From positions 868-64,867 of the forward strand of contig JBAZWG010000002.1 of assembly GCA_041660505.1 (NCBI GenBank): a stretch of 64,000 bases of DNA. Direction: 5' to 3'. Position 1 is the first letter of the stretch; every line of letters starts with the position of its first letter. The notes under the pieces were generated by a model. It made no database searches. It was not told where the DNA came from and worked only from the letters and a program-made list of their open reading frames with translations. Below, piece after piece: positions 28,755 through 50,254 of this stretch. The DNA is from Minisyncoccota bacterium. Its GTDB lineage: Bacteria > Patescibacteriota > Minisyncoccia > Phycocordibacterales > JACRKE01. Position numbers and translations under genes: made by a program.

Positions 28755-29784
28755 GTAAGTCTCTATAAAATTCGATGTCGTCTAAGATTATTCCGGTACC
28801 CCTTGCTACGGCCGTAAGCGGGTCATCGGAAATATATACTGGAATCTTCAAATCCTCCTCGAATACCTTGGTCAAGCCACGCAGAAGAGAGCCGCCGCCA
28901 GTGAGTAATATGCCTCTATGCATGATGTCCGAAATAATTTCTGGCGGAGTTAATTCCAACACTTCGCGTACGGCCGTCACCAGAAGACTGATTGATTGCC
29001 CGATTGCCTCGGTAATATCCTCGTTCGTCAGCATTATCTCGCGAGGGAGGCCAGTGACGAGGTCGCGACCCCGCACTATAGTTTCTAACGATTCGGATTT
29101 TGGATGGATAGAACCTATGGCAATCTTGACCTCCTCGGCGGTCTTCTCTCCGATGAGCATTTTGAACTCATCGCGCACATAGCCGACAATATCTTGATTA
29201 AGTTTGTCGCCCGCTATACGCAAGCTCTTGGCTTTTACGATGCCGCCGAGCGATATGACCGCTATGTCTGAGGTGCCGCCACCTATATCGATTATCATAT
29301 TACCTATCGGCTCGTAGACGGGCATACGGATACCGATAGCGGCGGCAATAGGTTCTTCTACTATATGCACTTCGCGCGCGCCGGCATTCTTAACAGCATC
29401 TCGTACGGCACGGCGTTCGACATTCGTAATACCGGACGGTACCCCCACGACCACTCGCGGACGGATTATCTTACGCGGAAACATTGCCTGTGTCTTTTTT
29501 ATGAAATAATGTATCATCTCCTCTGTTGCCTCGAAGTCGGAGATGACACCGTCAACCAGGGGCCTCACCGCAACGATGTGCTGGGGCGTGCGGCCGAGCA
29601 TCGAACGCGCATCACTGCCTATTGCCACAACCTGACCGGTCTTTTGGTTCAAGGCAACTACTGACGGCTCATTGATAATGATGCCGTTCCCACGAACAAA
29701 CACGAGCGTGTTGGCGGTACCCAGATCCATACCCACGTCGCTTGAGAATTTTGTGAGCAAACTTTCGAGAACTTTATTTTTCAT
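28720..29784 (-). CDS. mreB: rod shape-determining protein MreB
   Basis: DLGTANTLVF, EPIAAAIG and IDIGGGTSDIAVIS actin-fold motifs; 354 aa. Confidence 0.9.
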   Translation of the reverse strand: MKNKVLESLLTKFSSDVGMDLGTANTLVFVRGNGIIINEPSVVALNQKTGQVVAIGSDARSMLGRTPQHIVAVRPLVDGVISDFEATEEMIHYFIKKTQAMFPRKIIRPRVVVGVPSGITNVERRAVRDAVKNAGAREVHIVEEPIAAAIGIRMPVYEPIGNMIIDIGGGTSDIAVISLGGIVKAKSLRIAGDKLNQDIVGYVRDEFKMLIGEKTAEEVKIAIGSIHPKSESLETIVRGRDLVTGLPREIMLTNEDITEAIGQSISLLVTAVREVLELTPPEIISDIMHRGILLTGGGSLLRGLTKVFEEDLKIPVYISDDPLTAVARGTGIILDDIEFYRDLLVQDEDDLPPE

Positions 29785-31015
29785 ATCCGATTAGCTTGGC
29801 CATCAGTTCATCCTCGGTCAGTCCGATTGCGTCTGTATCCTTACGCGCTTTATATTCCAGCTTGCCAGAAGCCACAGTCTTCGCACTTATAATCACCCTA
29901 TGCTGGATACCTATCAAGTCGCTGTCGGCAAACTTCTCTCCGGCTGGTTTATCTCTATCGTCATACAAGACCTCTATTCCCTTCGCAGTCAATCTTTCAT
30001 ATAACTTATCAGCATCGGAACTGACATCGCCAAGAGATACTAAGTGTATTATAAAAGGCGACACAGCCTCCGGCCAGACAAGCCCTTTCTCATCCGCGAA
30101 GTATTCTACAATGACACCCATAAGTCGCGAGAGGCCGATACCATAACAACCCATGACGACCAACTCATCTTTACCTTCACTTGTTCTGTAGGTTAATTCA
30201 AACGGTGTCGTATATTTCGTCTTCAATTCGAAGATATTGCCAACCTCTACTGCCGACTTTACTATAAGATCTTTCGAACCGCATGATGGGCAAACACTCT
30301 GTTCCGCGATTATTTCTTTATTTATCGCAACATGGCACTTCTCACAAATAGAGATAGTATCCTCACCGGTCTCGAGCACCGTTTGGAACTCGTGAGAATA
30401 TTTAGAGAACGATCCGCCGGAGGCAAAGGTTATATAAGTATCTTTGCCGAGTCCTAATCTTTCATAAACCTTGGCATAAACACCCTTCATCTTTTCATAA
30501 TATTTAGCCAAATCGGCCTCGTCGGCATGGAAGGAGTACATGTCCTTCATAATGAACTCTTTACCGCGCAAGAGCCCTGACTTCGCGCGCAACTCGGCAC
30601 GGAATTTGTTCTGGAATTGATACACGGATTGAGGCAGGTCTTTATAAGAAGATATAAATCTCTTCAAGAGTGGGACAACAACCTCTTCATGGGTGGCGCC
30701 CAATACAAATTCTCTGTCTGACGCGTCTTTAAGCTTAAACAATGGATCGGGACCGGACCAACGGCCGGTTGTTTCCCAGTTCTCTTTAGGATGAAGGGCC
30801 GGCATATAGATTTCTTGCCCGTCGGCCTTATCCATCTCCTCGCGAATTATCTGCTCTATCCTATTCATTACTCGCAAACCAAGCGGTAAGAATGTGTATA
30901 CACCGGCGTGTAATTTATCAATAAAACCGGCACGGATAAGCAGGGTCGCGTTCTTAGACACCTCATCCTTTGGTGCCGTTTTGCTTGTTTTAGTGAAGAG
31001 TTGTGATTGTCGCAT
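29774..31015 (-). CDS. proS: prolyl-tRNA synthetase, bacterial-type but lacking the INS editing domain
   Basis: N-terminus MRQSQLFTKTSKTAPKDEVSKNATLLIRAGFI... collinear with bacterial ProRS. Class II motifs present (FRAELRAKSGLLRGKEF, GCYGIGLSRL). Only 413 aa versus ~570 for editing-competent bacterial ProRS. Confidence 0.9.
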   Translation of the reverse strand: MRQSQLFTKTSKTAPKDEVSKNATLLIRAGFIDKLHAGVYTFLPLGLRVMNRIEQIIREEMDKADGQEIYMPALHPKENWETTGRWSGPDPLFKLKDASDREFVLGATHEEVVVPLLKRFISSYKDLPQSVYQFQNKFRAELRAKSGLLRGKEFIMKDMYSFHADEADLAKYYEKMKGVYAKVYERLGLGKDTYITFASGGSFSKYSHEFQTVLETGEDTISICEKCHVAINKEIIAEQSVCPSCGSKDLIVKSAVEVGNIFELKTKYTTPFELTYRTSEGKDELVVMGCYGIGLSRLMGVIVEYFADEKGLVWPEAVSPFIIHLVSLGDVSSDADKLYERLTAKGIEVLYDDRDKPAGEKFADSDLIGIQHRVIISAKTVASGKLEYKARKDTDAIGLTEDELMAKLIGYEK

Positions 31016-31036: not shown

Positions 31037-31894
31037 TTAAGACTTTTTGTCAAAAAATTTGTTATCTCTTTTATTCTTAAGGTCAAGGTAATTTGATCTT
31101 GTTGAGACCTTTTGTCCAGTCTTGGCTTCGACAGCTCGACGAGCGACACCCGCAACCGAACCACCTTCTTTTGCATCTTTTTGTAGGGCTGGCAGTTCGC
31201 GAGAATCTTTGTTGCGAGAAATTTGAGTTGTTGTTGCTTCACCAAGCATCGTTAAAATAAGCTCGAGCTCGTTCATGTGGTCGCGTGGATTGTCTGGACT
31301 GTTCAAGCTCTTAAACTCTTTAATTTCTTTTGCTGTCATTTCGAATGCGCCCTGATATATCTCGTTAGTCAATATCGCAAAGTCAATCCCCTCCCTTGCA
31401 CCACGATCTTTCCACTCATCTGTTAGCGTATTCCGGATATTAATACCACGCATTCGTTTGGCGACCCAATCTTCTGAATAGCCTTTCCTGTCGTATATCT
31501 GTTTTGCTCTAACTATTGCCCGTTCCGGGTCTTGGATTTCCTCTATGCGCTCCTGACCGACCTTTGCAAGCCAGAGCTTGAAAGGCTCGGCTTTTGGGGA
31601 CGGTATGGATTGGATTATTCTAAACATACCCTGAAGATTTGTGCTGTCTGTCTCATATAACTTACCGTCTGCTGATGGTAATTTCAGTTGTACGATTTTT
31701 TCGTACAACTCGGAATATCCTTCTGAAATAAGCTTAATTTTAAGATCGCTCCAATATCGCCTCGGGTTTTGGCTCTCTGAAAGAATGCCTACGATATCAA
31801 TTATAGAGAAATACCACTGCTCATTATGCCATGTTCTGCGAACTTCCTTCTCTTCGAAAACAGCTGATTGTTTTACTTTTATGTCTTTTTTCAT
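31037..31894 (-). CDS. DinD-like protein (N-terminal Bro-N domain; DNA-damage-inducible protein D family), paralog 1
   Basis: Bro-N-like N-terminus (FEEKEVRRTWHNEQWYFSIIDIVGIL). The rest is collinear with E. coli DinD (LTDEW..GAREGIDFAILTNEIY..., ELELILTMLGE). Paralog of 59828..60586. Confidence 0.65.
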   Translation of the reverse strand: MKKDIKVKQSAVFEEKEVRRTWHNEQWYFSIIDIVGILSESQNPRRYWSDLKIKLISEGYSELYEKIVQLKLPSADGKLYETDSTNLQGMFRIIQSIPSPKAEPFKLWLAKVGQERIEEIQDPERAIVRAKQIYDRKGYSEDWVAKRMRGINIRNTLTDEWKDRGAREGIDFAILTNEIYQGAFEMTAKEIKEFKSLNSPDNPRDHMNELELILTMLGEATTTQISRNKDSRELPALQKDAKEGGSVAGVARRAVEAKTGQKVSTRSNYLDLKNKRDNKFFDKKS

Positions 31895-31900
31895 GCGATT

Positions 31901-32992
31901 TTAGAATAGCTTTACAATGTCGTGTACGGTTACGATTGCCATCAGTATTATGAGGATTGCGAAGCCTGCGGAATGGACCTTTTGAGTGAATTCCGGTTTT
32001 ATCGGCGAACCTTTAATTTTCTCTATTATAATGAATAGTATTCGGCCACCGTCCAAGGCCGGAATAGGTAGAATATTAAGAACTGCCAGATTAATGGAGA
32101 GCAACGCCATGAATGCCAGTATATAAGAGAAGCCAATGCCCGAGGCCATGCCGACCATCTTGAATATCCCAACCGGCCCACTGACCTGTCCGACCGTTGA
32201 TTCTTTTGCGAATATTCCTGTGGCGAAATAGTACAAACCTGTTATTGTTTCTTGCGCCAAGCGAACTGTCATGAGACCGCTCTCTCTTATCGCCGACATT
32301 GGAGGCAGATACGCCTCACCCATAATGGCAAAAGCGATACCTATTTTATATGTCTTGCCGTCTTCGGATTGCGGGGTAACAGTTACGAGTTCCGGCGCGG
32401 ATTTACCTGCGTGTTTGATATTGAGAATTATCGGCTTGCCGACGCTTTTCGCCACCAAATCGGAAATATCAACAGACCCGAGTACCGTATCTCCGCTCGA
32501 CAATCCGGCACGCGATGCCGGCGAATCATTTGCTACATAGTCTATTATTATCTGTCTATTGCGCAAATATTCCGGATTTATCGTACCTTCTACGGGTAAG
32601 AGAAGGCCTGTCTGGAGGCTTACGAATAACAAAAGCAACGCGAGCAATATATTCCCGATTACGCCAGCCGCGAGAATGATTATTTTTTTGTATGTCTGCT
32701 GGGTGCTGAAGCTGCGTGTTGAAAATTCGGAGGTCGGACCTCCGAAAGTCGTCGGAGGTCCGACCTCCGAATTTTCACCTTCTTCTCCCAATATTCTGAC
32801 GAATCCGCCGAGAGGCAACCAATTCAGCGAATAAAATGTTTCGCCGTATTGTTTGCCGAAAATTTTTGGCGGGAAGCCGAGCCCAAACTCATCGACTTGC
32901 ACACCGAAGAGCTTCGCGGCAATGAAGTGGCCGAACTCATGAGAAATAATAAGCGTCACGAGGACGATAATGAAGAGTATGGCTGTAAACAT
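31901..32992 (-). CDS. rseP: RIP zinc metalloprotease RseP (site-2 protease, M50 family)
   Basis: HEFGHF zinc motif in TM1, PDZ region, LPIPALDGG motif. It carries an in-frame palindromic repeat insertion (see repeat feature 32722..32775). Confidence 0.85.
   Translation of the reverse strand: MFTAILFIIVLVTLIISHEFGHFIAAKLFGVQVDEFGLGFPPKIFGKQYGETFYSLNWLPLGGFVRILGEEGENSEVGPPTTFGGPTSEFSTRSFSTQQTYKKIIILAAGVIGNILLALLLLFVSLQTGLLLPVEGTINPEYLRNRQIIIDYVANDSPASRAGLSSGDTVLGSVDISDLVAKSVGKPIILNIKHAGKSAPELVTVTPQSEDGKTYKIGIAFAIMGEAYLPPMSAIRESGLMTVRLAQETITGLYYFATGIFAKESTVGQVSGPVGIFKMVGMASGIGFSYILAFMALLSINLAVLNILPIPALDGGRILFIIIEKIKGSPIKPEFTQKVHSAGFAILIILMAIVTVHDIVKLF
32722..32775. repeat. tandem pair of 21-bp perfect palindromes flanked by AAAA/TTTT, lying in frame inside rseP
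   Basis: ttcggaggtc-g-gacctccgaa at 32726-32746 and gtcggaggtc-c-gacctccgaa at 32751-32771. Together they form a ~56-bp super-palindrome. They encode ...ENSEVGPPTTFGGPTSEFS... in a loop that is ~13 aa longer than in E. coli RseP. Confidence 0.7.
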
Positions 32993-33592: not shown

Positions 33593-33603
33593 ATTATATC
33601 ACA
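33593..33603 (-). promoter_or_regulatory. extended -10 promoter TGTGATATAAT for frr, overlapping the holB stop
   Basis: Minus-strand TGtGATATAAT is the same 11-mer as upstream of the 13581 gene. It is followed by a ~40-nt leader rich in CTTTCAACTT repeats. Confidence 0.4.
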
Positions 33604-34255
33604 CAGCTTGCCCGCCGACGAGGCGGGGCAGATGTAAGGCCAAACTCTCAAGAATAAGTTTAATGGCCGGCGCCGTGTCGTGTATATATTGCTTGCTCTT
33701 TTCGAGCAGTTCGAAGGCTGTTTTGTCTTTTTTCGCCAGTTCCGGGTTCTTTGCATAATATATTTCTAAAGCAGACAATATTGCACCGGCATCGTATTTA
33801 GTCCGCGCGTGCACTTCATCACTCTCATCGCGCACGTCAAAGAATGTCTTTTCTAGATATTTCAACCGTTCGATCGGCGTTTTCCTCAGAAACTTTTCTG
33901 CGTCGAAAACTTCTTCACTTGGAAGCTTAGCTTCCAAGTCTTCTAAAATATGTAATCTTGAGCGGAGGGTTGGTAATAAGTCATCCGGATACGGCGTAAT
34001 GATAACAAACTTAGTTCCGGGCATTGGCTCTTCTAGTGTCTTGAGTAGAGCATTCTGCGCCTCTCGTCCGAAGCCGTACGCGCCGATACTGAATGTCTGT
34101 ACATCCCCGTCTGCCACTGCCAAGCTTGCCCTGCGGTGCAATTCATGTGCGTCGGCGATATCAAATGTTACGTAAACTTCATCAGCAGAGACGGGCTCGC
34201 CTTGTATCAAGAATGCATGGTGAGTTGAAAGTTGAAAGTTGAAAGGGGTTCGCAT
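33599..34255 (-). CDS. holB: DNA polymerase III delta' subunit-like (AAA+ clamp-loader subunit without a P-loop)
   Basis: HHAFLIQGE (degenerate Walker A region, as in delta') and ALLKTLEEPMPGTKFVIITPYPDDLLPTLRSRLHI (sensor-1 / SRC-like motif). 218 aa. Codons 5-11 (FNFQLST) are encoded by an (AGTTGAA)3 heptamer repeat. Confidence 0.65.
   Translation of the reverse strand: MRTPFNFQLSTHHAFLIQGEPVSADEVYVTFDIADAHELHRRASLAVADGDVQTFSIGAYGFGREAQNALLKTLEEPMPGTKFVIITPYPDDLLPTLRSRLHILEDLEAKLPSEEVFDAEKFLRKTPIERLKYLEKTFFDVRDESDEVHARTKYDAGAILSALEIYYAKNPELAKKDKTAFELLEKSKQYIHDTAPAIKLILESLALHLPRLVGGQAV
34222..34244. repeat. (AGTTGAA)3 tandem heptamer repeat immediately downstream of the holB start codon
   Basis: gagttgaaagttgaaagttgaaagg. 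It is related to (AGTTGGG)4 at the fmt 5' end and to AAGTTGAAAG motifs at 33551-33590 and 48301-48360. Confidence 0.7.
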
Positions 34256-34293: not shown

Positions 34294-35319
34294 TTATCGC
34301 TTGCTTATAATACTGCGTTTATATGTATCAAGATGCTCGAGGGCGACACCAGTGCCTTTAGCCACACAAAAGAGTGCTTCGTCGGCAAGCTGAGCTTTGA
34401 CCCCCGTCTTGCGATAGACCAATTCCGGCAGATTGCGAAGCTGGGAGCTCCCGCCGGTCATGATTATGCCTTTATCAATAATATCAGAGGCGAGCTCCGG
34501 CGGTGTCTCTTGCAAAACATCTTTAATCGCCTTGACCATCTGACGAAGCTCGTTGTCAATCGCCTTCACAATCTCATTCGTCGCCATCTCGGCACTGCGC
34601 GGGAGACCGGTCAAGAAATCTCGACCCTTAATAATAGTGCGCAATTCGCTCTCCATCGGTACTGCAGAACCGATCTTCACCTTAATTTCTTCTGCGGTCT
34701 TGTCGCCTATCGCCAGATTAAACGTGCGTTTGATATATTCCGTAATAGCGACATCCATTTTATTACCGGCACACTTGACGGATGTAGAGGCCACGATACT
34801 GCCAAGGGATATCACCGCTACGTCTGTCGTACCGCCGCCGATGTCGACGACCATGTACCCGCATGGCTCATGAATCGGGATGCCGGCGCCAATCGCCGCG
34901 AGTATCGGCTCCTTGACCACGTAAGCACTGCGCGCACCAGCCTTGATGGCTGCCTCGATGACAGCCCGGCGCTCGGTCGAGGTAATACCGGCAGGTACGG
35001 ATATCATAACGTCGGGCTTAAAAAAGTTCCACTTGCCAAGAGCCTTCTGGATATAATACCGTAACATCGCCTCGGTCACGCGATAGTCGGCGATGACGCC
35101 GTCCTGCATCGGTTTGTAGACAAGTATACCGTCCGGCGCCTTGCCCACCATCTCTTTGGCCGCCGCGCCGACGGCCAAGACTTTATTATCTATCTCCGAA
35201 ACAGCCACAACTGAAGGCTCGTTTAGAACAATCCCCCGCCCAGGTACGAAGACGAGCGTGTTGGCGGTACCCAGATCAATACCAAGCTTGCGAGTAAATC
35301 GAGGGAATTCAAACTTCAT
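34294..35319 (-). CDS. mreB: MreB/Mbl actin-like protein, second paralog
   Basis: Start set at MKFEFPRFTRKLGIDLGTANTLVFV (ATG 35319). TGcTATAGT sits 6 nt upstream on the minus strand. Full MreB motif set. The ORF-track N-terminal extension runs into the RAYT element and is rejected. Confidence 0.85.
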   Translation of the reverse strand: MKFEFPRFTRKLGIDLGTANTLVFVPGRGIVLNEPSVVAVSEIDNKVLAVGAAAKEMVGKAPDGILVYKPMQDGVIADYRVTEAMLRYYIQKALGKWNFFKPDVMISVPAGITSTERRAVIEAAIKAGARSAYVVKEPILAAIGAGIPIHEPCGYMVVDIGGGTTDVAVISLGSIVASTSVKCAGNKMDVAITEYIKRTFNLAIGDKTAEEIKVKIGSAVPMESELRTIIKGRDFLTGLPRSAEMATNEIVKAIDNELRQMVKAIKDVLQETPPELASDIIDKGIIMTGGSSQLRNLPELVYRKTGVKAQLADEALFCVAKGTGVALEHLDTYKRSIISKR

Positions 35320-35381
35320 TACCCTACTATAGCAAACACTTTTTACTGTCCAAAGCTTAGCTTTGATAATTTCGATATGTG

Positions 35382-35390
35382 TGGTATAAT
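35382..35390 (+). promoter_or_regulatory. extended -10 TGgTATAAT, 6 nt upstream of the RAYT ATG (leaderless)
   Basis: gtggtataat-ttaaca-ATG. Confidence 0.45.
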
Positions 35391-35396
35391 TTAACA

Positions 35397-36077
35397 ATGC
35401 GAATTATTGAATTTTGTGCGAATGAATATTACCACGTCTTTAACAGAGGCAATAATAAACAAGTAATCTTTCGCGATGATAGCGACCGTTTCCGATTCCT
35501 GTTCGCACTGCTTTTTTTTCAGGCTCCAATCAGCTATGACCAGATTGGCAGATATATAGTGTTTTTAAAAAGGCACAGGACGGACATTAGCCAGAATGAT
35601 TCATTAAAGGATTTAGCGGAGCACGTACTGGGCAAACGCTCTATAGAATTAATCAATTTTTGTCTTATGCCAAACCATTTCCACCTTGCCGTTAAGCCAA
35701 TGAAGGATAATGCAGTGTCGCTATATTTACATAAAGTATTAACTTCGTATACAAAATATTGGAATAAAAAATATAAGGCGACGGGACACCTGTTCGAAGG
35801 ATCATTCAAAGCTGTCCGTGTTGCTGATAATGACCAGTTTTTATATCTATCGACCTATATACACAGAAACCCCGCTGAATTATCGACGTGGATTGGTCGC
35901 GAGCATGAATATCCGTGGTCGAGTCTGCAAGACTACCTTGGTGTTAATCGTTGGGGAAAACTGCTTGCGACCGAAAATATTTTAGAGCAATTTGACTCGA
36001 TTGAGGAATATCGGGCTTATGTTAACGATAGCACAGCAAAAACCGGCGATGACGACATCGAGTTTGTCCAAAGCTAA
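35397..36077 (+). CDS. REP-associated tyrosine transposase (RAYT), HUH/Y1 family
   Basis: YHVFNRGNN...IF.DD.DR.RFL.LL, HUH motif LMPNHFHL, GHLFEGSFK, catalytic-Tyr region YIHRNPAELS, and the C-terminal YPWSS motif. Start at ATG 35397 (ORF-track GTG 35379 rejected). Confidence 0.7.
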   Translation: MRIIEFCANEYYHVFNRGNNKQVIFRDDSDRFRFLFALLFFQAPISYDQIGRYIVFLKRHRTDISQNDSLKDLAEHVLGKRSIELINFCLMPNHFHLAVKPMKDNAVSLYLHKVLTSYTKYWNKKYKATGHLFEGSFKAVRVADNDQFLYLSTYIHRNPAELSTWIGREHEYPWSSLQDYLGVNRWGKLLATENILEQFDSIEEYRAYVNDSTAKTGDDDIEFVQS

Positions 36078-36094
36078 GCTTTGGACATTGGACC

Positions 36095-38344: not shown

Positions 38345-41300
38345 TTACGGCGTCGTACTCGTCGCATTTGGGTCTATTACGTTAACTATTCTTATCTGTT
38401 CGATGGCATTATTACCTGAATTATCTACTGCGTTATATTTAACCTCATGTGTACCGGCTAATGTTGTGTCTATCTGATCGCCTGTCGTGACTATGCCGAG
38501 ATTATGATCTACGTTGTCTGTAACTGTTGCGCCCATGTCGCTGTAACTCGAGCCCATGTTTATTGTAGATGGGTTGAGGCCGAGCATTGTGATGACCGGA
38601 GCCTCTGTGTCTGCTGGCGGGGTCGAAGTACCAGCAGGCGCCCCGGCTGGGGCAGTTCCTGCCACGCACTCCCCTGCTACGCTGGCGACGAGGCCACTTG
38701 ACACCTTCAAACAATACGGATTGCCTGTCGTGTCGTCATATAATGTGACACCTATCGGGTTTACTGACGAGCCAACCTTCATACTCTTTAACACGTTTAA
38801 GTCTTGTACCACCAATCTGCCGTTCTCGTCCAAGCTCCAGTTGCCCGAGGCAGAAGCCAGACTCTTTATATTGACTATTGCTTGCCCTTGCAGGTCGAGT
38901 ACGCGCGCTGTTGCGAGCTTCATATAACCCGTACTTTGATCTACTACCCAGTCTGAACTCACGGCGCCGTCTGCAATACCCGAAGAAATATTCTGATAAC
39001 CAAGATTGACGAAGACAGTAATACTGCCTGTCTGTGAATAAGAGCCGTCGGGTAGAGTGCCGCTCCAAGGCTCAAGGGCGATACCAACAGTCTGGCCGGA
39101 GGTCGTCGCCTTCATACCGATACCTGCCGCCGATGAAAGCGTGATGTAGTCACCAACCGCAATATCCCCTCCTTCAAGGTTAACTTTAGTCGGCACGCGA
39201 CCAGAGAGAGCCACGGGACGCGAAGTACTCGCCGTAAACTCCGAACTTGCACCACCGAGCAGAACACCGGGGTCAGTAGATATGATTCCTATTACCGGTA
39301 TGATAGTAGAACTTGCCTTTCTCACAACAAGAGTCGAGGTAGAAGTATCCAACGATACTAAGTCACCCGCCGAGATAGTCTCGTCCGTTATTTTGTAACT
39401 CTCTGCCAGGTCCACGGTTTGCGTCGAAGCTCCTCGAGAATAAATCTGTCCTGCCGGTACAGAACTACATGCTACCGTAGCGGAACTCGTTGACACGCAA
39501 AGACCGGAACCAGTCCCTGTTCCGTAAACTTCGAGCTTCGCCCCTGGCGTCGTCGTCCCGATACCGACGTTGCCCCCCTGTGCCTGAAAAGCGATATTCT
39601 GATTATATCCCGTGTTCTGCTGTATTCCTTGAAATTCAAAGACATTTGAGGCATTGGACATTGTAACCTGTAGTTGCTTTTGTGTTGTCCCCTGCTGATT
39701 TCCAAACTCCATAAGTTTAACGCGGTCTGTTGCAGTCTCGCTTACTGGAGAGATAACTCCATTCACGCTTAGCTTGTAGTTAGGTGTGGTTGTCCCGATG
39801 CCTACGTTGCCCGCGTTTGTTATTGACAACTTCTCCGAGCCTTGTACCGCTAACCCCATGGTTGCTCCTGTACCTCTTGCGTCTAAGAACGCTTTACCAG
39901 CATTACTCGTGTATATAGACAGACCAGTAGCGGCAGCAGCGGAGAAGGTGTTGTTGCCAATTACCAATCCATAAGGGCTATCATCATCTCCTGTTATTTT
40001 TAGCAGTTGTGTTGCGGCTGTCCCACCATCAAGAATTTCAAGTTTTGCCGAAGGACTCGTCGTCCCGATGCCGACGTTGCCATTCTGTTGTATTCTCATC
40101 TTCTCAGCATTAGCTGGTGAGAATGAGATATAGTTTCCAGTACCAGCAGAGTAGTTGGTTTGGAAATCAAGTGAATTATCACCAGCGTCATTGAAGGTTA
40201 TTTTGGCATACTGTCCCGCTACTCCTGCGCCCAAGTTATCCAAAACGATTTGCGGATTGCCGCGAGTCCCCTCGTGAATTGAAAGTTTAGCCCACGGAGT
40301 TGTGGTTGCAATTCCGACATTACCATTCGTATCTATCATCACTTGGTCAGTATTTGAATAGGAGTCTGACCCTTTTCCAAAAAACATTGTCCCATTACTA
40401 CTCTGTATGTAGCGATGATGCAAACCAGATACGGCATCGGTATCAGAAAGATAAAACATTGGGGCGATATTGGCGATATTTAACAAATATGCTGGCGTCG
40501 TCGTCCCGATACCGACGTTGCCGTTTCGGAGCACTGTGAACGATGTCGTTGTTGCCGTTAATGTTGAGCTGGCCACCGTGAATATCGGCTGGGTGCCGTC
40601 AACATTGCTGTCGCTTGTGTTGGCGGAGACAGAGAGTTTGGCCCATGGGGTTGTGGTGCCGATACCGACTAGCCCGCCGGAGGTGATACGCATGGCTTCG
40701 GTCATTGCGGTGCTATTGTTGGTACTGAAAGCTAAGTAGCCAAGTTGATTGTTTGTTGTAGAGTTTTCTTTAAACCCAACGATGCTGGCGAAATTTCTGA
40801 TCGATGAGGGGATTAATGGTACATCGTCTTTATAACCACCGAAGGCGATAGAGCCACCGGTATCTACAGCTTGGGAATTATTCGATCGTATCAATAATTG
40901 TCCCGTAGCGGTACGCGTCGGGACGGTGCTCGAGCCATAGATATCAAGCAGAGCTAGCGGCGTCGTCGTGCCGATGCCGACATAGCCACTGCGGAGGATT
41001 GTAAATAATGAATTGGTGGCGCTGGCGGTAGAGCTCGCAACGACAAAGAGCGGGGTGGCCATGTTGGCAGAGGAGTCGGTCGTATTGCCTTGTATCGAGA
41101 GTTTAGCAAATGGTGAGGTAGTGCCGATGCCGACAAAACCATTAGTGGTGAATTGGCCTGTGCTTGTGGTGGTGGCGTTGCCGTTCACGGTCAAAACAGA
41201 TGTTGATGTTGTGCCTGTTGTAGTGAGGTTGGCGTTGGTGCCAGAGGAACCAATGAGAACGCCACCGGCAAAGTTGGCGGCGACGCCGTTCGGGTTGGTA

Positions 41301-44300
41301 ATTGGATAGCTGACAATAACAATACCGGAACCGCCACCGCCACCCGCGCCTCCTTCTGTAGCACCGCCACCTCCACCGCCCGAGTTAGTGGTTCCGGCAG
41401 TACCAGCACCAGAAGTACCTCCTGCGCCACCGCCACCAAGCCCTCCAGAACCTCCGCTTTGAAGATCGCTGGAGCCACCACCACCGCCACCATAGTAGAC
41501 GGTGGTTACACCATCGCTAATAGCGGTAGTTGTGCCTATTCCGCCGACGCCGGCGGCTGCATCTGACCCATTACTACCAGTAGCACCCGCTCCGCCACCA
41601 CCACCGCCACCATTATTCTGTGCCGCTCCGCCACCATTATAGCCTTGCCCCGAAGTACCGTTACCGCCTGATTGACTGCCGGCACTGGCAGCACCGCCAC
41701 CAGAACCACCATCGCTACCAGCCCAAGTGAACGCTTGAGAACCTCCCTTACCTCCTCCTGTGGCCACTACAGTACCAAACTGCGAATCGCCTCCGTTAGT
41801 ATTAGTGCTACCGGTAGCACCCGCTCCGCCAGCACCGACTACTACTGTTATGCTTTGAGAAGGCGTCACCGCGTATGAATATCCGTTACTAGGTCCGCCG
41901 CCAACAACTCCTCCTCCACCTCCTCCACCGCCATCAACCCACGAAGTAACGCCGTTCTTGCCTCCACCGCCACCACCTGCCACCACGAGCACCTTAACGC
42001 TGGTTACACCACTACTTGGAACGGTAAAAGTGACAGACCCGGTATTGGTAAATGTATGAACCCTGTAGGTCTGTCCACCTGACGTATAGGTAGTGACGGT
42101 TCCTTGATTGTCTGTAGCCGATGGCGTTGAGCCTACTGCATTAACATCGAGTGAATATGCCGGCGTCACAACGCCGATGCCGACGAGGCCTGCGGACGTG
42201 ATAGTTGTTGTTGCAGTTCCTCCAAACCACGACTGATCGTTGACGGAAAGTTGAGTTGTCGAAGCATTAGTAAACGTGGCTTGGCCGGTGACTGCGAGCG
42301 TGCCGGATAATGTCGTTGCGCCGGTGACGGAGAATGTGCCACCAACGGATGTGTCGCCGGAGACAACGAGAGCTGATGTGCTTGCTGTGCCCGTCACCGC
42401 CAGATTCGTCGTCGTGGCGTTGGTGCCTGTGGCATTCACGAAGGTGAAGTTTTGGAGGGTGGTGCTACCTGTGAGCAAGATGTTGGTGGCGGTGAGGAGA
42501 CCGTTATTAAGAAGCGTAAGCCTCTCGTTGTTCGCGAAGTCGGCGAAGGCGAAGAGTCTGCCGGTGTCATTGGTGCCGAAGCCGTTGACGGCGAACTTGG
42601 CGGATGGCGAGGTTGTGCCCACGCCGACACGGTCGGAATATGAACTGCCGGTGCCGTCGGCAAGAGCGTAGACCGTGAGGGTGGAGGTAGCACCAATGCC
42701 AGCCGAGAAGCCGAGCTCGGTACCGGAGGCGAGCGTTGTCGAGGCGAGAGGCATATTGATCCAATCAATGAGACCGGCGTCGGCCTCGAAGGATTGCGAG
42801 CCGGTGATGAGCTGGGCAATGGTGGTTGAGCCGGTGTTGTCTATAGAGAAGAGCGTGGTGGAGGCACTGTCTGTGACTTCGAAAGCTCGGCCTGATGACG
42901 TGGCTGTGCCCCAGATGGTAACCTTGGCATATGGCGAAGTGGTGCCGATGCCGACGTTGCCTGTCGATGAAATGTAGATGGAAGAGGTGGCCTGTGCTAC
43001 TCCCGCATCGTTACCGACGAGCAAGAAGCCTTTCGTAAGATTGAGAGTGGTGAGAAGTGAGGATGTGGCAGTTGAATACAATCCGCCGGTAGAAGTAAGT
43101 GATGCAAAACCGGATGTGTAAGAAGAGAATGTCGCGTTGCCGGAGACTATGAGCGCGGATGTGCTTGCGATGCCCGTCACCGCCAGATTTGTCGTTGTCG
43201 CATTCGTGCCCGTGGCGTTTGCGAAAGTAAAGTTCTGGAGAGTAGTTGACCCCAGTGTAAAGATATCGCCGAGATAATTCACAGAGAATTTGGTGGAGGA
43301 TGCGACTTTCATATCTAGCAACATACCGGAGAAACCGGCTAGGGCATCGGTGCCGATAACTGTGCCCGTGGTGGAGAGTTTTTCGACAGAAAGTAGGGCG
43401 TATGGTGATGAGGTACCAATGCCCAACAAGCCTTCGGCGGTCACTGCGCCGAGAACCGTACCAGAACCATTTTGCCATTCTTGCAGATCTGCTGTTTGGC
43501 TTGTGATGCCTTGTACGATCAAACCTTTTTCACCGACCTCAGCAGTGCTGACGTGAAGTTTAGCGAGCGGTGTGGCATGCGAGGTGGCGGTATTGCCGAG
43601 AACAAGGGAGCCTATGAAGATCCAATCTGATTGGCTGGCGCTTATATTGAGTTTGTAATATCTATAGTTCTGTGCTGTACCTAGGGCATATGTTCTGATT
43701 TCACCAGAGCTCCAAGCGGGAACATTTGTTTGTGTATTCAAAACAGTCCATGCCGAATTGTCGTTTGAACCCTCGAATGTCCAAGTTTTTGGCCCATAGG
43801 TGTAATAAGTGGTATACGAGTCTGCCTGGATTTTATATTGATTTACAGTTGTATAGGTTCCCAAATCAATTTTCAACCAACCTGAAGTACCATTAACACA
43901 CCACGCCGTCGAAGAATCTGAATCAAAAGATTGCCACGCAGAACAGTTGACCTCTGTAGACGCACTTGCCACATACGGCGAAGGGGCGCTGTCGCTCGTC
44001 AAGAATGTCGGGATCTGAACATTTGCCGGCGTAGAACCAATAGCTAAGCGAGAGTTTATCGAGTCAAAATACATGATGCTGTTATTCTGACTGACTGCTC
44101 CATTAGCACCAATATACGGGACAGAGCCAGAAGTAAGCGCGGTAAGCGAGAGCGTACCGCCAACCGTTGAATTGTCGCTGACGATGAGCGCAGAAGTTGA
44201 TGCTGTACCCGTGACTGCAAGGTTGGTGGTTGTCGCATTGGTACCCGTAGCATTGGCGAAAGTGAAGTTCTGCAATGTAGTTGATCCCAACGTAAAGATG

Positions 44301-47300
44301 TCGCCAAGATAATTTACGGAGAACTTGGTGGATGAGGCGACTTTGAGATCAAGTAACGTACCGGTAAATGTTGATAATGAATCAGCGCCAATGACGGTGC
44401 CTGAAGAAGATAGATGTTCGATAGAGAGACGAGCATATGGGGTTGAAGTGCCCATTCCGATCAGGCCGTTATAGAATGATGTGAAGATAGGGGCGGAACT
44501 TGTGGCGTTTTGTAATGAAAATATGGAGATACTTTGTGAACGAGAGGTCGTAGCGTTGAGCGAGAAGAAGCCGTTCACATTCAGACTGTTCCAAAGTCTG
44601 GTATTCCCCGCCACTTCGACATTGCCGGATGAGAAAATGTCGCCGGAGTAAATTGATGATGCGCCGGAGTCGGCCTCGGCAAGAGTACTGCTTGAGTAAG
44701 CGAAGCCGATCATGTCAAGAGTACCAGCCAGCATTGTGCGCGCCAATGATGAATATTCAACAGATGAAAGTGCGGTCGTACCGCCATCATTTGTTCCGGC
44801 GATGGCATAAACATAACCATTTACAACAAGAGATGTGTGATATTCCCTAGCACCGCTAAATGGCGTAGCGGTGAGCGTCGTCCACGCGCCGAGAGTGCCA
44901 TTTGCATATATCTTGGCATATTCGATGGAGGAAAGGTTGCCGCCGCCGATACCGCCCATCGCGTACAAATATCCGTTTGCCACCACGGCGGATAACGCTC
45001 CTCTGGCTGTATTAAGAGGAGTTGCGGTGAGCGTCGTCCACGCGGCCAGCGTGCCGTCGCTGTTTATCTTCGCTGACTCTACCGACGATATGGACGTTCC
45101 ACTTGTTATTCCACCAATTGTATAAATATATCCTCCAACAACAACTGACGCGTGAATATTTCTGGCTGCGTTAAGCGGTGTCGCCGTTAGGGTCGTCCAT
45201 GTACCAAGCGTACCGTCACTATTTATCTTCGCATATTCGACGGTAGCGGTATCGCTTATGCCGGTACGACCGCCCATAACATATACATAACCGTTAGAAA
45301 CTACGGAGGCGTGCGCGTATCTGGTGATATTTAATGATGCCGTCGTTTTCCACGCACCGAGCGTGCCGTCGCTGTTTATTTTTGCGTATTCGACAGTATT
45401 AACCTGTACTCCACCTGTACCATTACCACCGATGGCGTAGACATATCCGTTGGCGGCGATAGAACTGTGCTGATATCTTGTGATGGTAAGCGATGACGTT
45501 GTTGTCCACGCACCAAGTGTGCCATTACTGTTTATCTTGGCATATTCGACAGATGAAAGCCTGGTACCGTTGTATCCACCGATGGCGTAGACATATCCGT
45601 TGGCGGCGACTGATGTCTGTTGGTAACGAGTCGTGCCTAGAGATGATGACGTTGTCCACGCGCCAAGTGTGCCATCATTGCCGGAGTTGAGCGCAATTGT
45701 TTTCTGCGCAACCGATACCGGATACACAGGGGATGAAGTCCCGATGCCGACGTTGCCGCTATTCTGCTGGACAACGAATTGCGATGTGCCAACTGTTAAG
45801 CCGCCCGTTGAGAATGTGGAAGTGGCGGTGGTGGAAGTAATTGCGAGCACGCTCGTTGTACCGATTGATGCGGTAAAATTCTGGAGCGTGGTACTGCCCA
45901 GCGTAAAGATATCACCGAGATAATTCACCGAGAACTTGGTGGAGGATGCGACTTTGAGATCGAGCAATAGGCCGGAGAAGCCGGTGAGCGCATCTCCCGC
46001 GATAAGCGTGCCGGCAGAAATCCCGTCGACGGAGAGCTTGGCGTAGGGCGTTGAGGTACCGATACCGACGTTACCGGCAGTACCTTCTATCACCATGCTG
46101 GTTTGCGGTGTTGCAAACATGTCTCTCGGAGTAGTTAGGAACCGAATTGCTGTTGGTACGGTGTCACCATTGTCTTCGGCTTGTTTCGCGGCGACAATAT
46201 CCAAGACTCGCGCATAACGACCCGCAGACGGATAATCTATTACATAGTTATATGAAAATGTGGCTCTGTCGTCCGCCAAATAACTCGGCAAACTCGTTCC
46301 TCCATATCCTCTGAATATTTTTATATCTTTACCATAAACGTCTAAACCTGCAGTGGGACTTTCGGTCCCTATTCCTACGTTGCCGCCGCGTGTTACAACA
46401 AAGTTAGTTGTTGTAGCAATATCGGTTGAGGATGATATCAAGAAGAGCGGTGCGATTAGGTCTAGATCGGAAGTGTTGCCACTCACAGAAAGTTTCGCGT
46501 AAGGCGAAGTGGTACCGATGCCGACGAGGCCAGTATCGGTGATGGTCATCCGCTCGGCACTGGCGGTTACGAATCGAAGGAAGTCGTCATCACCGGCGGT
46601 GATGTAGGTGGTCTGGGCGGCGTTGATGACACCGCCTAGGCCTTGCCAGACACTGTTGTCGCCGAAGCCTTCGAACTGGTGCGTCGTTGTGTTGTAACGG
46701 ATCTGGCCGGCAAGCGCCATGCCCGGTCTCTGGGCTGTTGTGCCAATTGGGAGATGGACTGCGTCGGTGGCGTAGATGTCGAGACTCGTGGCCGGTGTTG
46801 AAGTGCCAATGCCGATGCGACCGCTTGATGACTGGACGATGAATTGGCCGGAACCGATATTAAGGCCGCCTGTCGCGAACGTCGATGTAGCTGTTGTCGA
46901 TGTCGCAGTGAATGACGAGGCGACCACTTCGCCCATAACAGAGAGCGGTGCATATGGCGAGCTGGTGCCGATGCCAACATTGGAATTGCGGTAGATGTTG
47001 GAGCCGTTCACCGTCCAATTGGAGAATACTGCCGCAACACCATTCTGGAGTAATGAACCAGTGATGTTGATATCGCCCGCCACATCGAGCGCATGTTCGG
47101 GAGAAGTAGTGCCAATGCCGACAAGGCCGGTGAAGATGGCGCCAGTGCCGGTGGTGGTGCCCGTAAGTGTCCCGCCACCAAGCGGCAGATACCCGGAGAT
47201 TGTGCCCCCGCCGGTGAAGGTGCCGGAGATGGTGGCATTGGTGATGGTAACGCCGTTCAATGAATCGATGCGATTAGAGAGACTGATGGCGCGATAGTTG

Positions 47301-47833
47301 CCGGCATCGACAGCGGCGCCATGCGAAGCGTTGGCGTAGATGAGGGCTGTGAGTTTGTTGTCGAGCTGGTTCAGCTTGGTAGCCAAGTCACTTGATGTAA
47401 CACCGGAACTTGTTTGTTGGTAAATGATTGTTGGTTTGGTTGTTGTAACGGTTCTCGCGGGCGCACTGCCGATGACAGAAATCTTGCCCGCCAAACTATT
47501 GACTTGATCACGTAATGCTTGTATATCGCTGTTTACAGTTGTAGTTGACAGAGTATCAGATATCGTGGCAATGTCGGTGACTTTTTGACTGATAACAGGG
47601 GTGGTAACTGTGACTGTCGGAGAGGGCTTTTGGACCTGCGGAGAGAAGAAGGAGATGAGCGACGTTTGAACGCTATTGAATATGTCCCCTATCGTACTGC
47701 TGATGCTTGCCATATATTGGCTAGGTAGAGCCGTATATTCATTGACGAGGGAGGCGTGAGCTAGCGAAAAATTTGCAATAAAAAAGACGGTTAAAACCGC
47801 AAAGTAAACTACAAATTTTCGCACCGAATGCAT
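38345..47833 (-). CDS. giant secreted multidomain surface protein (3162 aa). It has tail-fibre-like GIGT repeats, a Kelch-type beta-propeller, a discoidin (F5/8 type C) domain, a Gly-rich domain, a tail-fibre-like C-terminal module and an Ig-like (DUF5011-type) domain.
   Basis: Signal peptide [27 protein letters not shown]. About 20 copies of G(N/L)VGIGT(T/S)(S/T)PxAKLxV. About 6 YVYAIGG Kelch blades (aa ~715-1060, nt ~44650-45690). Discoidin-like [31 protein letters not shown]...YRYYKL (aa ~1290-1415). Gly-rich [14 protein letters not shown]... (aa ~1955-2175, nt ~41320-41960). [19 protein letters not shown] module (aa ~2808-2990). C-terminal Ig-like [31 protein letters not shown] (nt ~38380-38610). 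No C-terminal TM or sortase signal. Confidence 0.85.
   Translation of the reverse strand: [3162 protein letters not shown]
42300..46000. repeat. three to four near-identical ~250-300 bp direct repeats inside the giant gene
   Basis: Copies around 45860-46000, 44160-44350, 43140-43330, and a partial copy at 42300-42480. They encode (G/M)LLD(L/M)[46 protein letters not shown]. They are potential recombination or size-variation substrates. Confidence 0.7.
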
Positions 47834-49678: not shown

Positions 49679-50254
49679 GTGATGAAAGTGATGTTGGATG
49701 GCGCACCGGTACTGCGCGAAAAAGCAAGAGAAGTACCTGTACCGGATATCAAAAAAGGCTTATATAAAGCCATGGTTGCAGACATGCAGGCTACGCTCCT
49801 GAAGTGCCACGATGGGGTAGCCTTGGCCGCCCCGCAGGTCGGCAAGAGCATCAGATTATTCGTAATATCGCCAAAAGTATTTCAAGCCGAACAGGAGTTA
49901 GGAGATGGGAGATCGGAGTTAGGGAAATCCAAAACCGTATCCCCCAAACTCCAAACTCCTAACTCCCAACTCCCACGCCTCGTCTACTTCAACCCTAAAA
50001 TAAAAAAAGTTTCTGCCAGTAAAAAAGATCTCGATGAAGGCTGCCTCTCGGTGAACGGCCTCTATGGCAAAGTCCCGCGCAGTACAAAGGCGCTGATTGA
50101 AGCCTACGACGAATACGGTATGAAGTTTACGCGCGGAGCATCGGGCCTGCTCGCGCAAATCTTCCAACATGAAGTCGATCATCTTGATGGCATTCTCTAT
50201 ATCGACAAAGCATCGGAACTCAAGCAATTAGAAAGTAGGAAAACAGATGCTTAA
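49679..50254 (+). CDS. def: peptide deformylase, carrying an ~28-aa repeat-encoded insertion
   Basis: GVALAAPQVG, EGCLSV and QHEVDHLDG motifs are intact. The segment ELGDGRSELGKSKTVSPKLQTPNSQLPR lies between the conserved VIS and LVYFNP blocks, where E. coli Def has only ~8 residues. Confidence 0.9.
   Translation: MMKVMLDGAPVLREKAREVPVPDIKKGLYKAMVADMQATLLKCHDGVALAAPQVGKSIRLFVISPKVFQAEQELGDGRSELGKSKTVSPKLQTPNSQLPRLVYFNPKIKKVSASKKDLDEGCLSVNGLYGKVPRSTKALIEAYDEYGMKFTRGASGLLAQIFQHEVDHLDGILYIDKASELKQLESRKTDA
49911..49987. repeat. imperfect hairpin element built from GGAGTTN / AACTCCN heptamers, in frame inside def
   Basis: Left arm gggagatcggagttaggg, a ~20-nt loop, right arm ccaaactccaaactcctaactcccaactccc. 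Confidence 0.65.

Follow-up and report, generated by a model that had tools for sequence, protein, structure and literature searches.

The 64-kb window analysed here, a continuous stretch of contig JBAZWG010000002.1 from a Minisyncoccota bacterium of the Candidate Phyla Radiation (CPR; Patescibacteria), contains a rseP-like site-2 protease gene whose reading frame accommodates a 58-bp perfect palindrome. The palindrome is itself composed of two smaller ones; a structure that probably represents a compact, CPR-specific relative of the REPINs, i.e. hairpin-forming doublets of repetitive extragenic palindromic (REP) sequences, which are associated with REP-associated tyrosine transposases (RAYTs). 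The gene and the parts of the element are as follows:

31901..32992, minus strand: rseP-like site-2 protease gene, host of the element; open reading frame (ORF) of 1092 nt, 363 amino acids, one PDZ-like region
32720..32777, strand not applicable: 58-bp perfect palindrome, a REPIN-like inverted doublet; arms 32720-32745 and 32752-32777, loop 32746-32751
32726..32746, strand not applicable: unit 1, a 21-bp perfect palindrome, TTCGGAGGTC-G-GACCTCCGAA; the mRNA strand reads SEVGPP
32752..32770, strand not applicable: unit 2, a 19-bp perfect palindrome, TCGGAGGTC-C-GACCTCCGA; reads GGPTSE

An earlier reading of this DNA (the original prediction) had placed in-frame palindromes inside a site-2 protease gene with intact catalytic motifs, and this we can confirm: the product is a member of the Peptidase_M50 family (Pfam, E 3.8e-54), with HEFGH at residues 18-22 and LDGG at residues 313-316. 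A 100% identical protein is on record as a site-2 protease of Candidatus Paceibacterota, and the nearest solved structures are those of the Aquifex and E. coli RseP proteins.

The palindrome reads TGAAAATTCGGAGGTCGGACCTCCGA-AAGTCG-TCGGAGGTCCGACCTCCGAATTTTCA; its 26-nt arms, as reported by a repeat finder, are 100% complementary about the 6-nt loop AAGTCG, making it the longest inverted repeat of the window by a wide margin, and each arm is in turn built on a smaller palindrome, GGAGGTC-N-GACCTCC. Two perfect 21-mers in tandem, bounded by AAAA…TTTT, had been described here. The first (32726-32746) is indeed perfect, but the second extends over just 19 nt, with its outermost G/A pair mismatched, and the A4/T4 tracts, whilst present, lie within the 26-nt arms rather than outside them. 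The tandem arrangement has to be given up: the centres of the two units are complementary (G, then C), which makes them an inverted doublet, and the whole stretch is a single perfect palindrome. In a search of the window for GGAGGTCNGACCTCC, allowing two mismatches (a setting at which 0.1 chance matches are expected), this locus gave the only exact match.

That the site can form a strong hairpin, as proposed, is supported by folding in both nucleic acids: as RNA the region adopts a single 26-bp stem of -57.4 kcal/mol (z = -10.1) and as DNA a structure of -33.1 kcal/mol (z = -10.8), with none of the shuffled sequences as stable in either case. A scan for promoters and terminators does not call the hairpin as a terminator, the four U residues that follow the stem being paired with the upstream A-run. 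Searched at a permissive threshold, Rfam returned nothing above its gathering score for the interval 30-38 kb (best 43.9 bits against a required 130, for generic miRNA-precursor hairpins), and with only such sub-threshold matches to go on a known RNA family was dropped as a candidate.

Within the protein, the palindrome lies 216 nt into the ORF and spans codons 73-91 plus the final base of codon 72, with residues 73-91 reading ENSEVGPPTTFGGPTSEFS. An AlphaFold2 model built from 27 homologues has a mean predicted local distance difference test (pLDDT) score of 88, falling to 53-55 over residues 71-90; a stretch that sits between a beta-hairpin (residues 33-67) and the second long helix (residues 100-128). 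In E. coli RseP a membrane-reentrant beta-loop, formed by residues 61-75, enters from the cytoplasmic side (PMC4597795), and since its counterpart in our protein, LPLGGFVRILGEE, has residue 71 as its last, the insert should follow directly after it and on the cytoplasmic side. On this model the element is predicted to encode a disordered cytoplasmic loop just past the reentrant beta-loop, in line with the suggestion that a permissive loop be sought in the topology of RseP. The same loop had been judged unusually long by comparison with E. coli; it does exceed its equivalent in the solved Aquifex homologue by 15 residues, but is only 3-4 residues longer than in its nearest relatives, which are themselves bearers of this type of element.

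We traced seven close rseP homologues to their DNA, and found at the corresponding site:

L002 (P0004), 63-65% identity to the window: CGGAGGTC-C-GACCTCCG
L005 (P0002), 63-65% identity: AGCAGTAGAAGTC-A-GACTTCTACTGCT, 27 bp and perfect; a decayed unit upstream
L007 (P0003), 63-65% identity: CAGTAGAAGTC-A-GACTTCTACTG; a decayed unit upstream
L008 (P0005), more distant: segment absent
L011 (P0007), more distant: segment absent
L009 (P0006), more distant: weak stem only

The comparison with orthologues that had been called for thus yields homologous palindromes in L002, L005 and L007, to which unit 2 of the window corresponds in position, and no such segment in L008 or L011. In a neighbour-joining tree calculated with the loop masked, the four palindrome bearers form one clade (80% bootstrap) with P0005 as its sister lineage; with a single clade of bearers and sister lineages that lack the segment, one gain, in the ancestor of the four-member clade, is the parsimonious history suggested by these sequences.

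The codon register of unit 2 is the same in all four bearers, its sequence being GGA GGT CCG ACC TCC in the window and L002 versus AGA AGT CAG ACT TCT in L005 and L007. By direct reading of the alignments, five of the ten stem pairs have changed on both sides between these two forms, with pairing intact throughout. The peptides encoded by the two arms differ and are not conserved, and the units lie in different frames (with a period of 25 or 22 nt), which indicates that the constraint acts on the nucleic acid. Between the rseP genes of the window and L002, third-position identity at identical residues has dropped to 0.36, yet 19 nt within the palindrome are identical; perfect palindromy in the face of near-saturated synonymous sites points to an active process of maintenance. 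Such comparisons argue that the element is old and has been kept palindromic by compensatory double substitutions, while the peptide it encodes was free to change.

An exact scan for the core, TCGGAGGTCNGACCTCCGA, over public metagenome, viral and GTDB species-genome collections shows the rseP copy to be one of a dispersed family, present on 62 metagenome contigs and on 36 contigs of GTDB species genomes; a result that answers the proposed search for further copies, although in the window itself only the rseP locus has one. Eight named Patescibacteria genomes (Saccharibacteria, Lloydbacteria, Kaiserbacteria and unclassified lineages) account for 21 of the 36 genome contigs, the highest count being 11 exact sites on 9 contigs of one Saccharibacteria metagenome-assembled genome, with 2-3 in the others. 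Another 11 are high-GC and non-CPR, which is about chance level given the ~9 matches that, by our own arithmetic, 18 fixed bases should produce in 596 Gb. The core is, therefore, multi-copy and strongly enriched in CPR genomes. Both contigs found in the viral collection are high-GC, identical to a metagenome match and without extension of the palindrome; they look like chance matches, and a phage link was dropped. A role as a DNA-uptake sequence was likewise set aside, a maximum of 11 exact copies per genome being far too low a density, and clustering of restriction sites (TCNGA, GCTNAGC) was dropped for want of any support.

A profile of flanks and centres drawn from 69 non-redundant low-GC sites has C or G at the centre in 55 of them and flanks that follow AAAWW-core-WWTTT, with at least three extra complementary flank bases at 35. 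The core is free of stop codons in all six frames, reading SEV[GR]PP, GG[PRQL]TS[DE] or RRSDLR, and at least 25 of the 69 copies form in-frame parts of ORFs that are 150 amino acids or longer. Frame use among these 25 is uneven (GGx 13, EVx 11, RRS, i.e. RRSDLR, 1), a bias suggestive of filtering at the protein level. Hosts confirmed by Pfam include RNase R, ATP synthase gamma, two GT4 glycosyltransferases, TatD, MnmA, Fmt, FolD and ComEC; the idea of coding sequence colonised by a small palindromic element, first put forward for this genome, accordingly holds for many housekeeping genes. Many other copies sit just past stop codons, and some intergenic members of the family do meet the definition of an intrinsic terminator.

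In ATP synthase gamma a doublet occupies the same codons in two organisms (L016 12102-13067 and L063 1131-2099; 76% amino acid identity), with both centres swapped together, C..G versus G..C, such that the long hairpin is preserved; from the sequences, the whole hairpin seems to have been flipped or replaced. All eight doublets compared (window, L062, L016, L063, L067, L014/L065, L089 and L029/L083) have complementary centres and are, as a consequence, inverted pairs.

The window also contains a RAYT-like gene, together with further palindromes, both at its ends and inside other genes:

35397..36074, plus strand: RAYT-like Y1 (HUH) transposase homologue with motifs MPNHFHL and YIHRNP; 2.6 kb from the rseP element
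35347..35369, strand not applicable: 5' flanking palindrome copy, TGTCCAAAGCT-T-AGCTTTGATAA; perfect over 35351-35365
36065..36087, strand not applicable: 3' flanking palindrome copy, TGTCCAAAGCT-A-AGCTTTGGACA, 23 bp and perfect; overlaps the stop codon of the RAYT-like gene
34387..34397, strand not applicable: copy of the AAGCTNAGCTT core in mreB, exact match
33917..33939, strand not applicable: in-frame 23-bp perfect palindrome in holB, ACTTGGAAGCT-T-AGCTTCCAAGT; has the core AAGCTNAGCTT
11247-11267: in-frame palindrome in a murG-like GT28 ORF, perfect, single-base centre
49452-49470: in-frame palindrome in a priA-like ORF, perfect, single-base centre
31686-31710: in-frame palindrome in a Bro-N ORF, with a 5-nt loop; the sole exception to the single-base centre among the long ones

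The RAYT-like gene sits between mreB and a Laminin_G-domain gene, and neither it nor its palindromes are present beside mreB in L002, L007, L009 or L011. Its product passes Pfam Y1_Tnp (41 bits; cutoff 23) and scores 37.8 against the cutoff of 80 for NCBIfam REP_Tyr_transpos. A sequence search of the PDB gives only weak matches to ISDra2 (E 0.016), hence a fold search was needed to bring out the closest relative: the model of the protein (pLDDT 84.6) finds as its best match PDB 4ER8 (E 8e-5, target TM 0.67), ahead of the ISDra2, IS608 and IS200 TnpA proteins. The two flanking palindromes share the form TGTCCAAAGCT-N-AGCTTTG(GACA) and have complementary centres, the 5' copy being overlapped by a strong promoter-like sequence, TTGATA-16-TATAAT (35363-35390). 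Exact matches to the AAGCTNAGCTT core number four, against an expectation of ~0.06 by our own estimate, and all fall within 33.9-36.1 kb: at both flanks of the RAYT-like gene, in mreB (34387) and in holB (33923).

The holB gene (33599-34255, minus strand) carries its palindrome in the linker that follows the RSRLHIL motif of DNA polymerase III delta'. At the same codons L002 has a 45-bp perfect palindrome (2059-2103) and L007 a doublet (2103-2138), the inner core in both being GGTT-N-AACC as opposed to AGCT-N-AGCT in the window, a difference of two compensatory double changes. No palindrome is found in holB of L009 or L011, and the linker of the window is no longer than the palindrome-free linker of L009. 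Over the window as a whole, perfect palindromes whose arms reach 9 nt or more comprise six of odd length and none of even length, where ~0.24 would be expected by chance (again our own estimate). The further instances in the same genome to which the original prediction alluded are found in holB, murG, priA and the Bro-N gene, and in imperfect form in def (peptide deformylase; 49679-50254, plus strand), where an in-frame hairpin of ~82 nt (49894-49975; -37.2 kcal/mol, z = -4.5) has arms made up of heptamer runs, GGAGTTA GGAGATG GGAGATC GGAGTTA, and their complements. Heptamer runs resembling those of def also adjoin the core in L022, L026, L078 and L080.

A motif search for ORFs with MPNHFHL and YIHxNP matched genes in L061, L073, L086 and L091 as well as that of the window (35397-36074, plus strand), all of whose products pass Pfam Y1_Tnp; three further members were traced to DNA, and nine RAYT-like genes were examined overall. 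The protein has more than 4,900 homologues, and those sources that carry names are mostly CPR lineages. Each of the nine genes has a perfect palindrome within a few tens of bases of its start and/or stop; constant at all positions around any one gene, the palindrome differs between lineages, with cores of GGAGGTC, GGAGATC, CGAGGT, TTTGGAGGT, AAGCT, GGCT and GAACT:

L061, L073 and L086: TCGGAGGTC-S-GACCTCCGA, exactly the rseP core
L113: CGGAGATC-C-GATCTCCG
L112: ATGTACGAGGT-TCG-ACCTCGTACAT, with a dispersed doublet 3 kb off
L115: ATGTTTGGAGGT-CTY-ACCTCCAAACAT
L091: ACTGTGCGAGGCT-W-AGCCTCGCACAGT
L113, second gene: ACTTGGGAACT-A-AGTTCCCAAGT
Window: TGTCCAAAGCT-W-AGCTTTGGACA, at 35347 and 36065, with complementary centres

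We distinguish a class 1, with a GTC-N-GAC centre, from a class 2, centred on CT-N-AG; the RAYT-like gene of the window carries the class other than that of rseP, its centre being CTNAG. The doublet of L112 (13894-13971), at a distance of 3 kb from the RAYT-like gene, has a ComM-like gene on one side and a PLD-domain gene on the other, and is a case of dispersal of a non-GGAGGTC variant within one contig. In six of the nine genes (subfamily 1) the coding sequence itself also contains the gene's own palindrome, in a variable loop before the HUH strand, where it shows in the protein as GGPTSD-like peptides; this internal copy could be an autoregulatory hairpin. The positions are:

L061, 2919-2937; L073, 1125-1141; L086, 3900-3924
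L112, 10190-10214; L113, 591-607; L115, 484-520

Taking the rseP locus, the dispersed core and the RAYT-like genes together, we interpret the rseP structure as a compact REPIN-like element of a CPR-specific REP/RAYT-like system, and put the probability of this at roughly 0.7. The element would consist of two REP-like palindromes of ~19-21 bp with the core TCGGAGGTC-S-GACCTCCGA, usually inside AAAWW...WWTTT flanks; two copies, inverted and 5-6 nt apart, would together make one long hairpin. The perfect odd-length palindromes of CPR genomes would then serve a CPR-specific clade of RAYT-like Y1/HUH enzymes as their cognate hairpins, each enzyme recognising its hairpin in single-stranded DNA and spreading or replacing copies, much as the precedent of E. 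coli TnpA-REP suggests. In genomes so dense with genes, the copies that survive would be those that are in frame, free of stops and placed in tolerant loops. The arms may regain their perfection through template switching, with the hairpin as template for correction, or through RAYT-mediated replacement where a hairpin already exists; the former would be a step of maintenance and extension on top of seeding by the element, and we infer that hairpin-templated template switching best fits the exact fold-back doublets, the complementary flanks peculiar to each locus and the arms made perfect again.

Saying this, a number of observations weigh against such an interpretation. The RAYT-like proteins score only 38-45 bits on NCBIfam REP_Tyr_transpos, under its cutoff of 80, and they have the HUH motif (MPNHFHL) and YIHxNP and lack NP(L/V)(R/K)xG, specifically its (R/K)xG part. 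The flanks of the 69 low-GC copies, as profiled, are complementary and rich in A or T, with no fixed tetranucleotide of the GTAG/GTGG or CGTC type, and exact copies number at most 11 per genome as against hundreds for classical REPs. The locus-specific complementary flanks of many copies are not what simple cut-and-paste of a fixed unit would predict, and A-tract/T-tract flanks in combination with positions after stop codons would fit a terminator role too. The 64-kb window contains neither a class-1 RAYT-like gene (one flanked by TCGGAGGTCSGACCTCCGA) nor a second copy of the rseP core, such that a live link in this genome is unproven; with no class-1 gene at hand, the rseP copy may be serviced from elsewhere in the genome, or else be a relic kept perfect by a hairpin-driven process. 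Mobilisation by the RAYT-like protein is likewise proposed by analogy, from the association of gene and palindrome and from the E. coli precedent, transposition being purely inferred.

A more far-reaching version, which we entertain tentatively and regard as possible rather than probable, is that of a phylum-wide and long-lived REPIN/RAYT-like system in which the hairpins are actively maintained, as domesticated DNA or RNA signals co-evolving with the enzyme. They would then be preserved by selection, or by enzyme-driven or hairpin-templated conversion, instead of being selfish insertions in decay; the sites concerned would include the essential rseP, holB, ATP synthase gamma and def genes along with the conserved loop of the transposase-like gene, and their roles might be e.g. 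the control of transcription, translation or replication, or autoregulation of the RAYT-like gene.

RAYT proteins carry the motif NP(L/V)(R/K)xG (Nunvar 2010, PMC2817692), and the known REP/REPIN-RAYT systems are characterised by inverted doublets, by a RAYT gene bracketed by its own REPs and by pairing that is kept through complementary mutations (PMC2817692; Bertels and Rainey 2011, PMC3116915); the structure that best fits the window protein, 4ER8, shows the REP-associated tyrosine transposase of E. coli in complex with a REP hairpin (Messing 2012, PDB 4ER8). What we describe shares with these the short, GC-rich, dispersed palindromes, the inverted doublets that make one long hairpin, a Y1/HUH gene flanked by its own palindromes (inverted in the window), covariation of palindrome and protein between lineages and palindromy kept by complementary mutations. 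It departs from them in that the CPR palindromes are perfect, with a single-base centre and no GTAG/GTGG head; in having a spacer of only 5-10 nt and a low copy number; in that about a third of copies are in frame inside genes rather than extragenic; in the extra palindrome within the coding sequence of subfamily-1 genes; and in proteins that fall under the NCBIfam cutoff and are without NP(L/V)(R/K)xG, in patescibacterial hosts. These are real differences, on account of which we set the system apart as a new variant of REP/RAYT-like system, not a member of the canonical family. The palindrome family is previously undescribed; the mechanism involved is not categorically new.

Intragenic REPs, or 'REP-decorated proteins', are known in Proteobacteria, many of them in genes of replication and repair (Di Nocera 2013, PMC3733652), and our palindromes resemble these in residing within ORFs, with hosts here that include holB and priA. 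The proteobacterial sequences are GTAG/CGTC-tagged, imperfect, mostly extragenic and found in large genomes (PMC3733652). Those of CPR, in contrast, are intragenic at a high fraction and persist over deep divergence.

Palindromic repeats lying in frame within essential genes of a reduced genome, tolerated at the surface or in loops and inherited at orthologous sites, are also a feature of the Rickettsia palindromic elements (RPE), reportedly described by Ogata et al. in 2000 and mentioned in PMC3733652. RPE are ~100-150 bp long, imperfect, restricted to Rickettsia and have no associated transposase; the unit here is 19-21 bp, the doublet 58 bp and the host a member of Paceibacterota, and there is no similarity of sequence. 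IS200/IS605 elements and their hairpin-ended derivatives (PATEs, palindrome-associated transposable elements, and MITEs, miniature inverted-repeat transposable elements) offer a further parallel, in a Y1/HUH gene bracketed by hairpins (the predicted single-stranded DNA substrate) and in the absence of the window gene and its hairpins from orthologous loci. IS200/IS605 elements have two different, imperfect subterminal hairpins, a TnpA of ~130-150 amino acids and often a TnpB; by comparison, the CPR genes have the same perfect palindrome at both ends and a protein of ~225 amino acids whose C-terminal region has a conserved WSS, and in its fold the window protein resembles 4ER8 more than it does the TnpA of IS608 or ISDra2. 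No duplicate copies of a RAYT-like gene were seen in the loci examined. Quasipalindrome template-switch mutagenesis, reportedly the work of Ripley (1982) and of the Lovett laboratory, and the creation of hairpins by template switching, said to have been documented by Monttinen and Loytynoja in 2022, would both account for perfect arms, concerted changes between arms, fold-back doublets and locus-specific complementary flanks. Such switching is a mutational process and not an element, however, and leaves the same 19-nt core at many unrelated loci unexplained.

This last point bears on the proposal of a local origin, in which snap-back synthesis at a short quasi-palindrome both made and perfects the rseP palindrome, no mobile element being involved and any resemblance to other copies being convergent. 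Arms that are perfect up to one central base go beyond the needs of a selected RNA hairpin; flanks that lengthen the core by 3-11 nt in many members, doublets that are exact fold-backs (flanks included) and a holB linker that its palindrome has not lengthened relative to L009 are all what local synthesis would produce. Yet an identical 19-nt core at upwards of 60 low-GC loci, unrelated to one another and spread over several CPR phyla, is beyond convergence, and it recurs around RAYT-like genes as well; we think a purely local origin quite unlikely, and template switching may well be a step of maintenance rather than the source. A hairpin selected by the host for regulation of the rseP operon, rather than retained as selfish DNA (as an intrinsic terminator or attenuator, intragenic or bidirectional, a site of mRNA stability or RNase action, or a translational pause after the first transmembrane helix, TM1, and the beta-loop) would explain why pairing, and even sequence, are conserved near saturation of synonymous sites, and would sit well with the very stable fold, the consensus of A-tract, GC-rich stem and T-tract, and the many copies right after stop codons. 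Against this, in-frame copies of the same core turn up at unrelated places in many unrelated genes, and the core also surrounds transposase-like genes; close relatives in rseP, P0005 and P0007 among them, entirely lack the palindrome, the terminator scan is silent (four T after the stem, and paired) and no Rfam family reaches threshold; an origin in host regulation is in our view unlikely.

Recurrent, independent insertion at the same hot spot in each lineage, in place of one ancestral insertion followed by compensation, would be expected to leave the pattern seen if the currently active variant of a lineage replaces old copies: four half-sites change in concert between GGAGGTC of the window and AGAAGTC of L005/L007, the holB core of the window is that flanking its own RAYT-like gene, and both centres are swapped between the ATP synthase gamma doublets of L016 and L063. 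With the bearers in one clade and the register of unit 2 the same in 4/4 genes, a single gain is more parsimonious and we hold repeated insertion to be very improbable; it would in any case be a variant of the REPIN-like explanation and in no contradiction with it. As to an artefact of sequencing or assembly, which the original prediction had named as what could undo it, a long perfect palindrome does invite the suspicion of a hairpin chimera or adapter dimer, inverted chimeras being possible in short-read assemblies. The frame is intact, there is unique sequence on both sides, DNA identical to the locus is present in a separate Logan assembly (L001) and homologous palindromes are present in orthologues that come from five or more other samples and assemblers; identical DNA in L001 and homologous palindromes elsewhere show that the structure is not an assembly artefact, adapter and chimera origins are ruled out on the same grounds, and what chance is left to them we consider negligible.

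Some features of the window lie apart from these questions. The Bro-N-domain ORF (285 amino acids; 31037-31894, minus strand) is situated between rseP and proS, an interval that is empty in L002, L005, L007, L008 and L011, and is probably a mobile or phage-derived insertion. The adjacent proS (29774-31015, minus strand) encodes 413 amino acids compared with 568-574, including a tRNA_edit domain, for its orthologues in L002, L007 and L011; judging by this shorter length, the editing domain seems to be missing from the window lineage, and likewise from L008 and L005. Further along, an ORF of 3162 amino acids occupies 38345-47833 of the minus strand, and over ~40-48 kb the GC content climbs to 0.50-0.53, with a change in sign of the GC skew near 42 kb, inside the same ORF.

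CPR/Patescibacteria genomes are tiny and gene-dense, and their mobile and repeated DNA is little described: we found no relevant report of REP, RAYT or REPIN in CPR, Patescibacteria, Saccharibacteria or Parcubacteria among 8 million full texts, and two large surveys covering RAYT/TnpA-Y1 diversity make no mention of CPR phyla. Our data suggest that the CPR host their own version of the REP/RAYT partnership, documented so far mainly in Proteobacteria, in which, there being almost no intergenic space, hairpins survive within essential genes as stop-free, in-frame loop insertions. This would account for many of the odd Gly/Pro/Ser/Thr-rich loop insertions in CPR proteins, would caution annotators and structure predictors about segments that are not protein-driven, and would supply markers for the typing of strains; it would also give, in the form of a small enzyme and a 19-nt hairpin, a tractable test case for the co-evolution of HUH enzymes with their hairpins.

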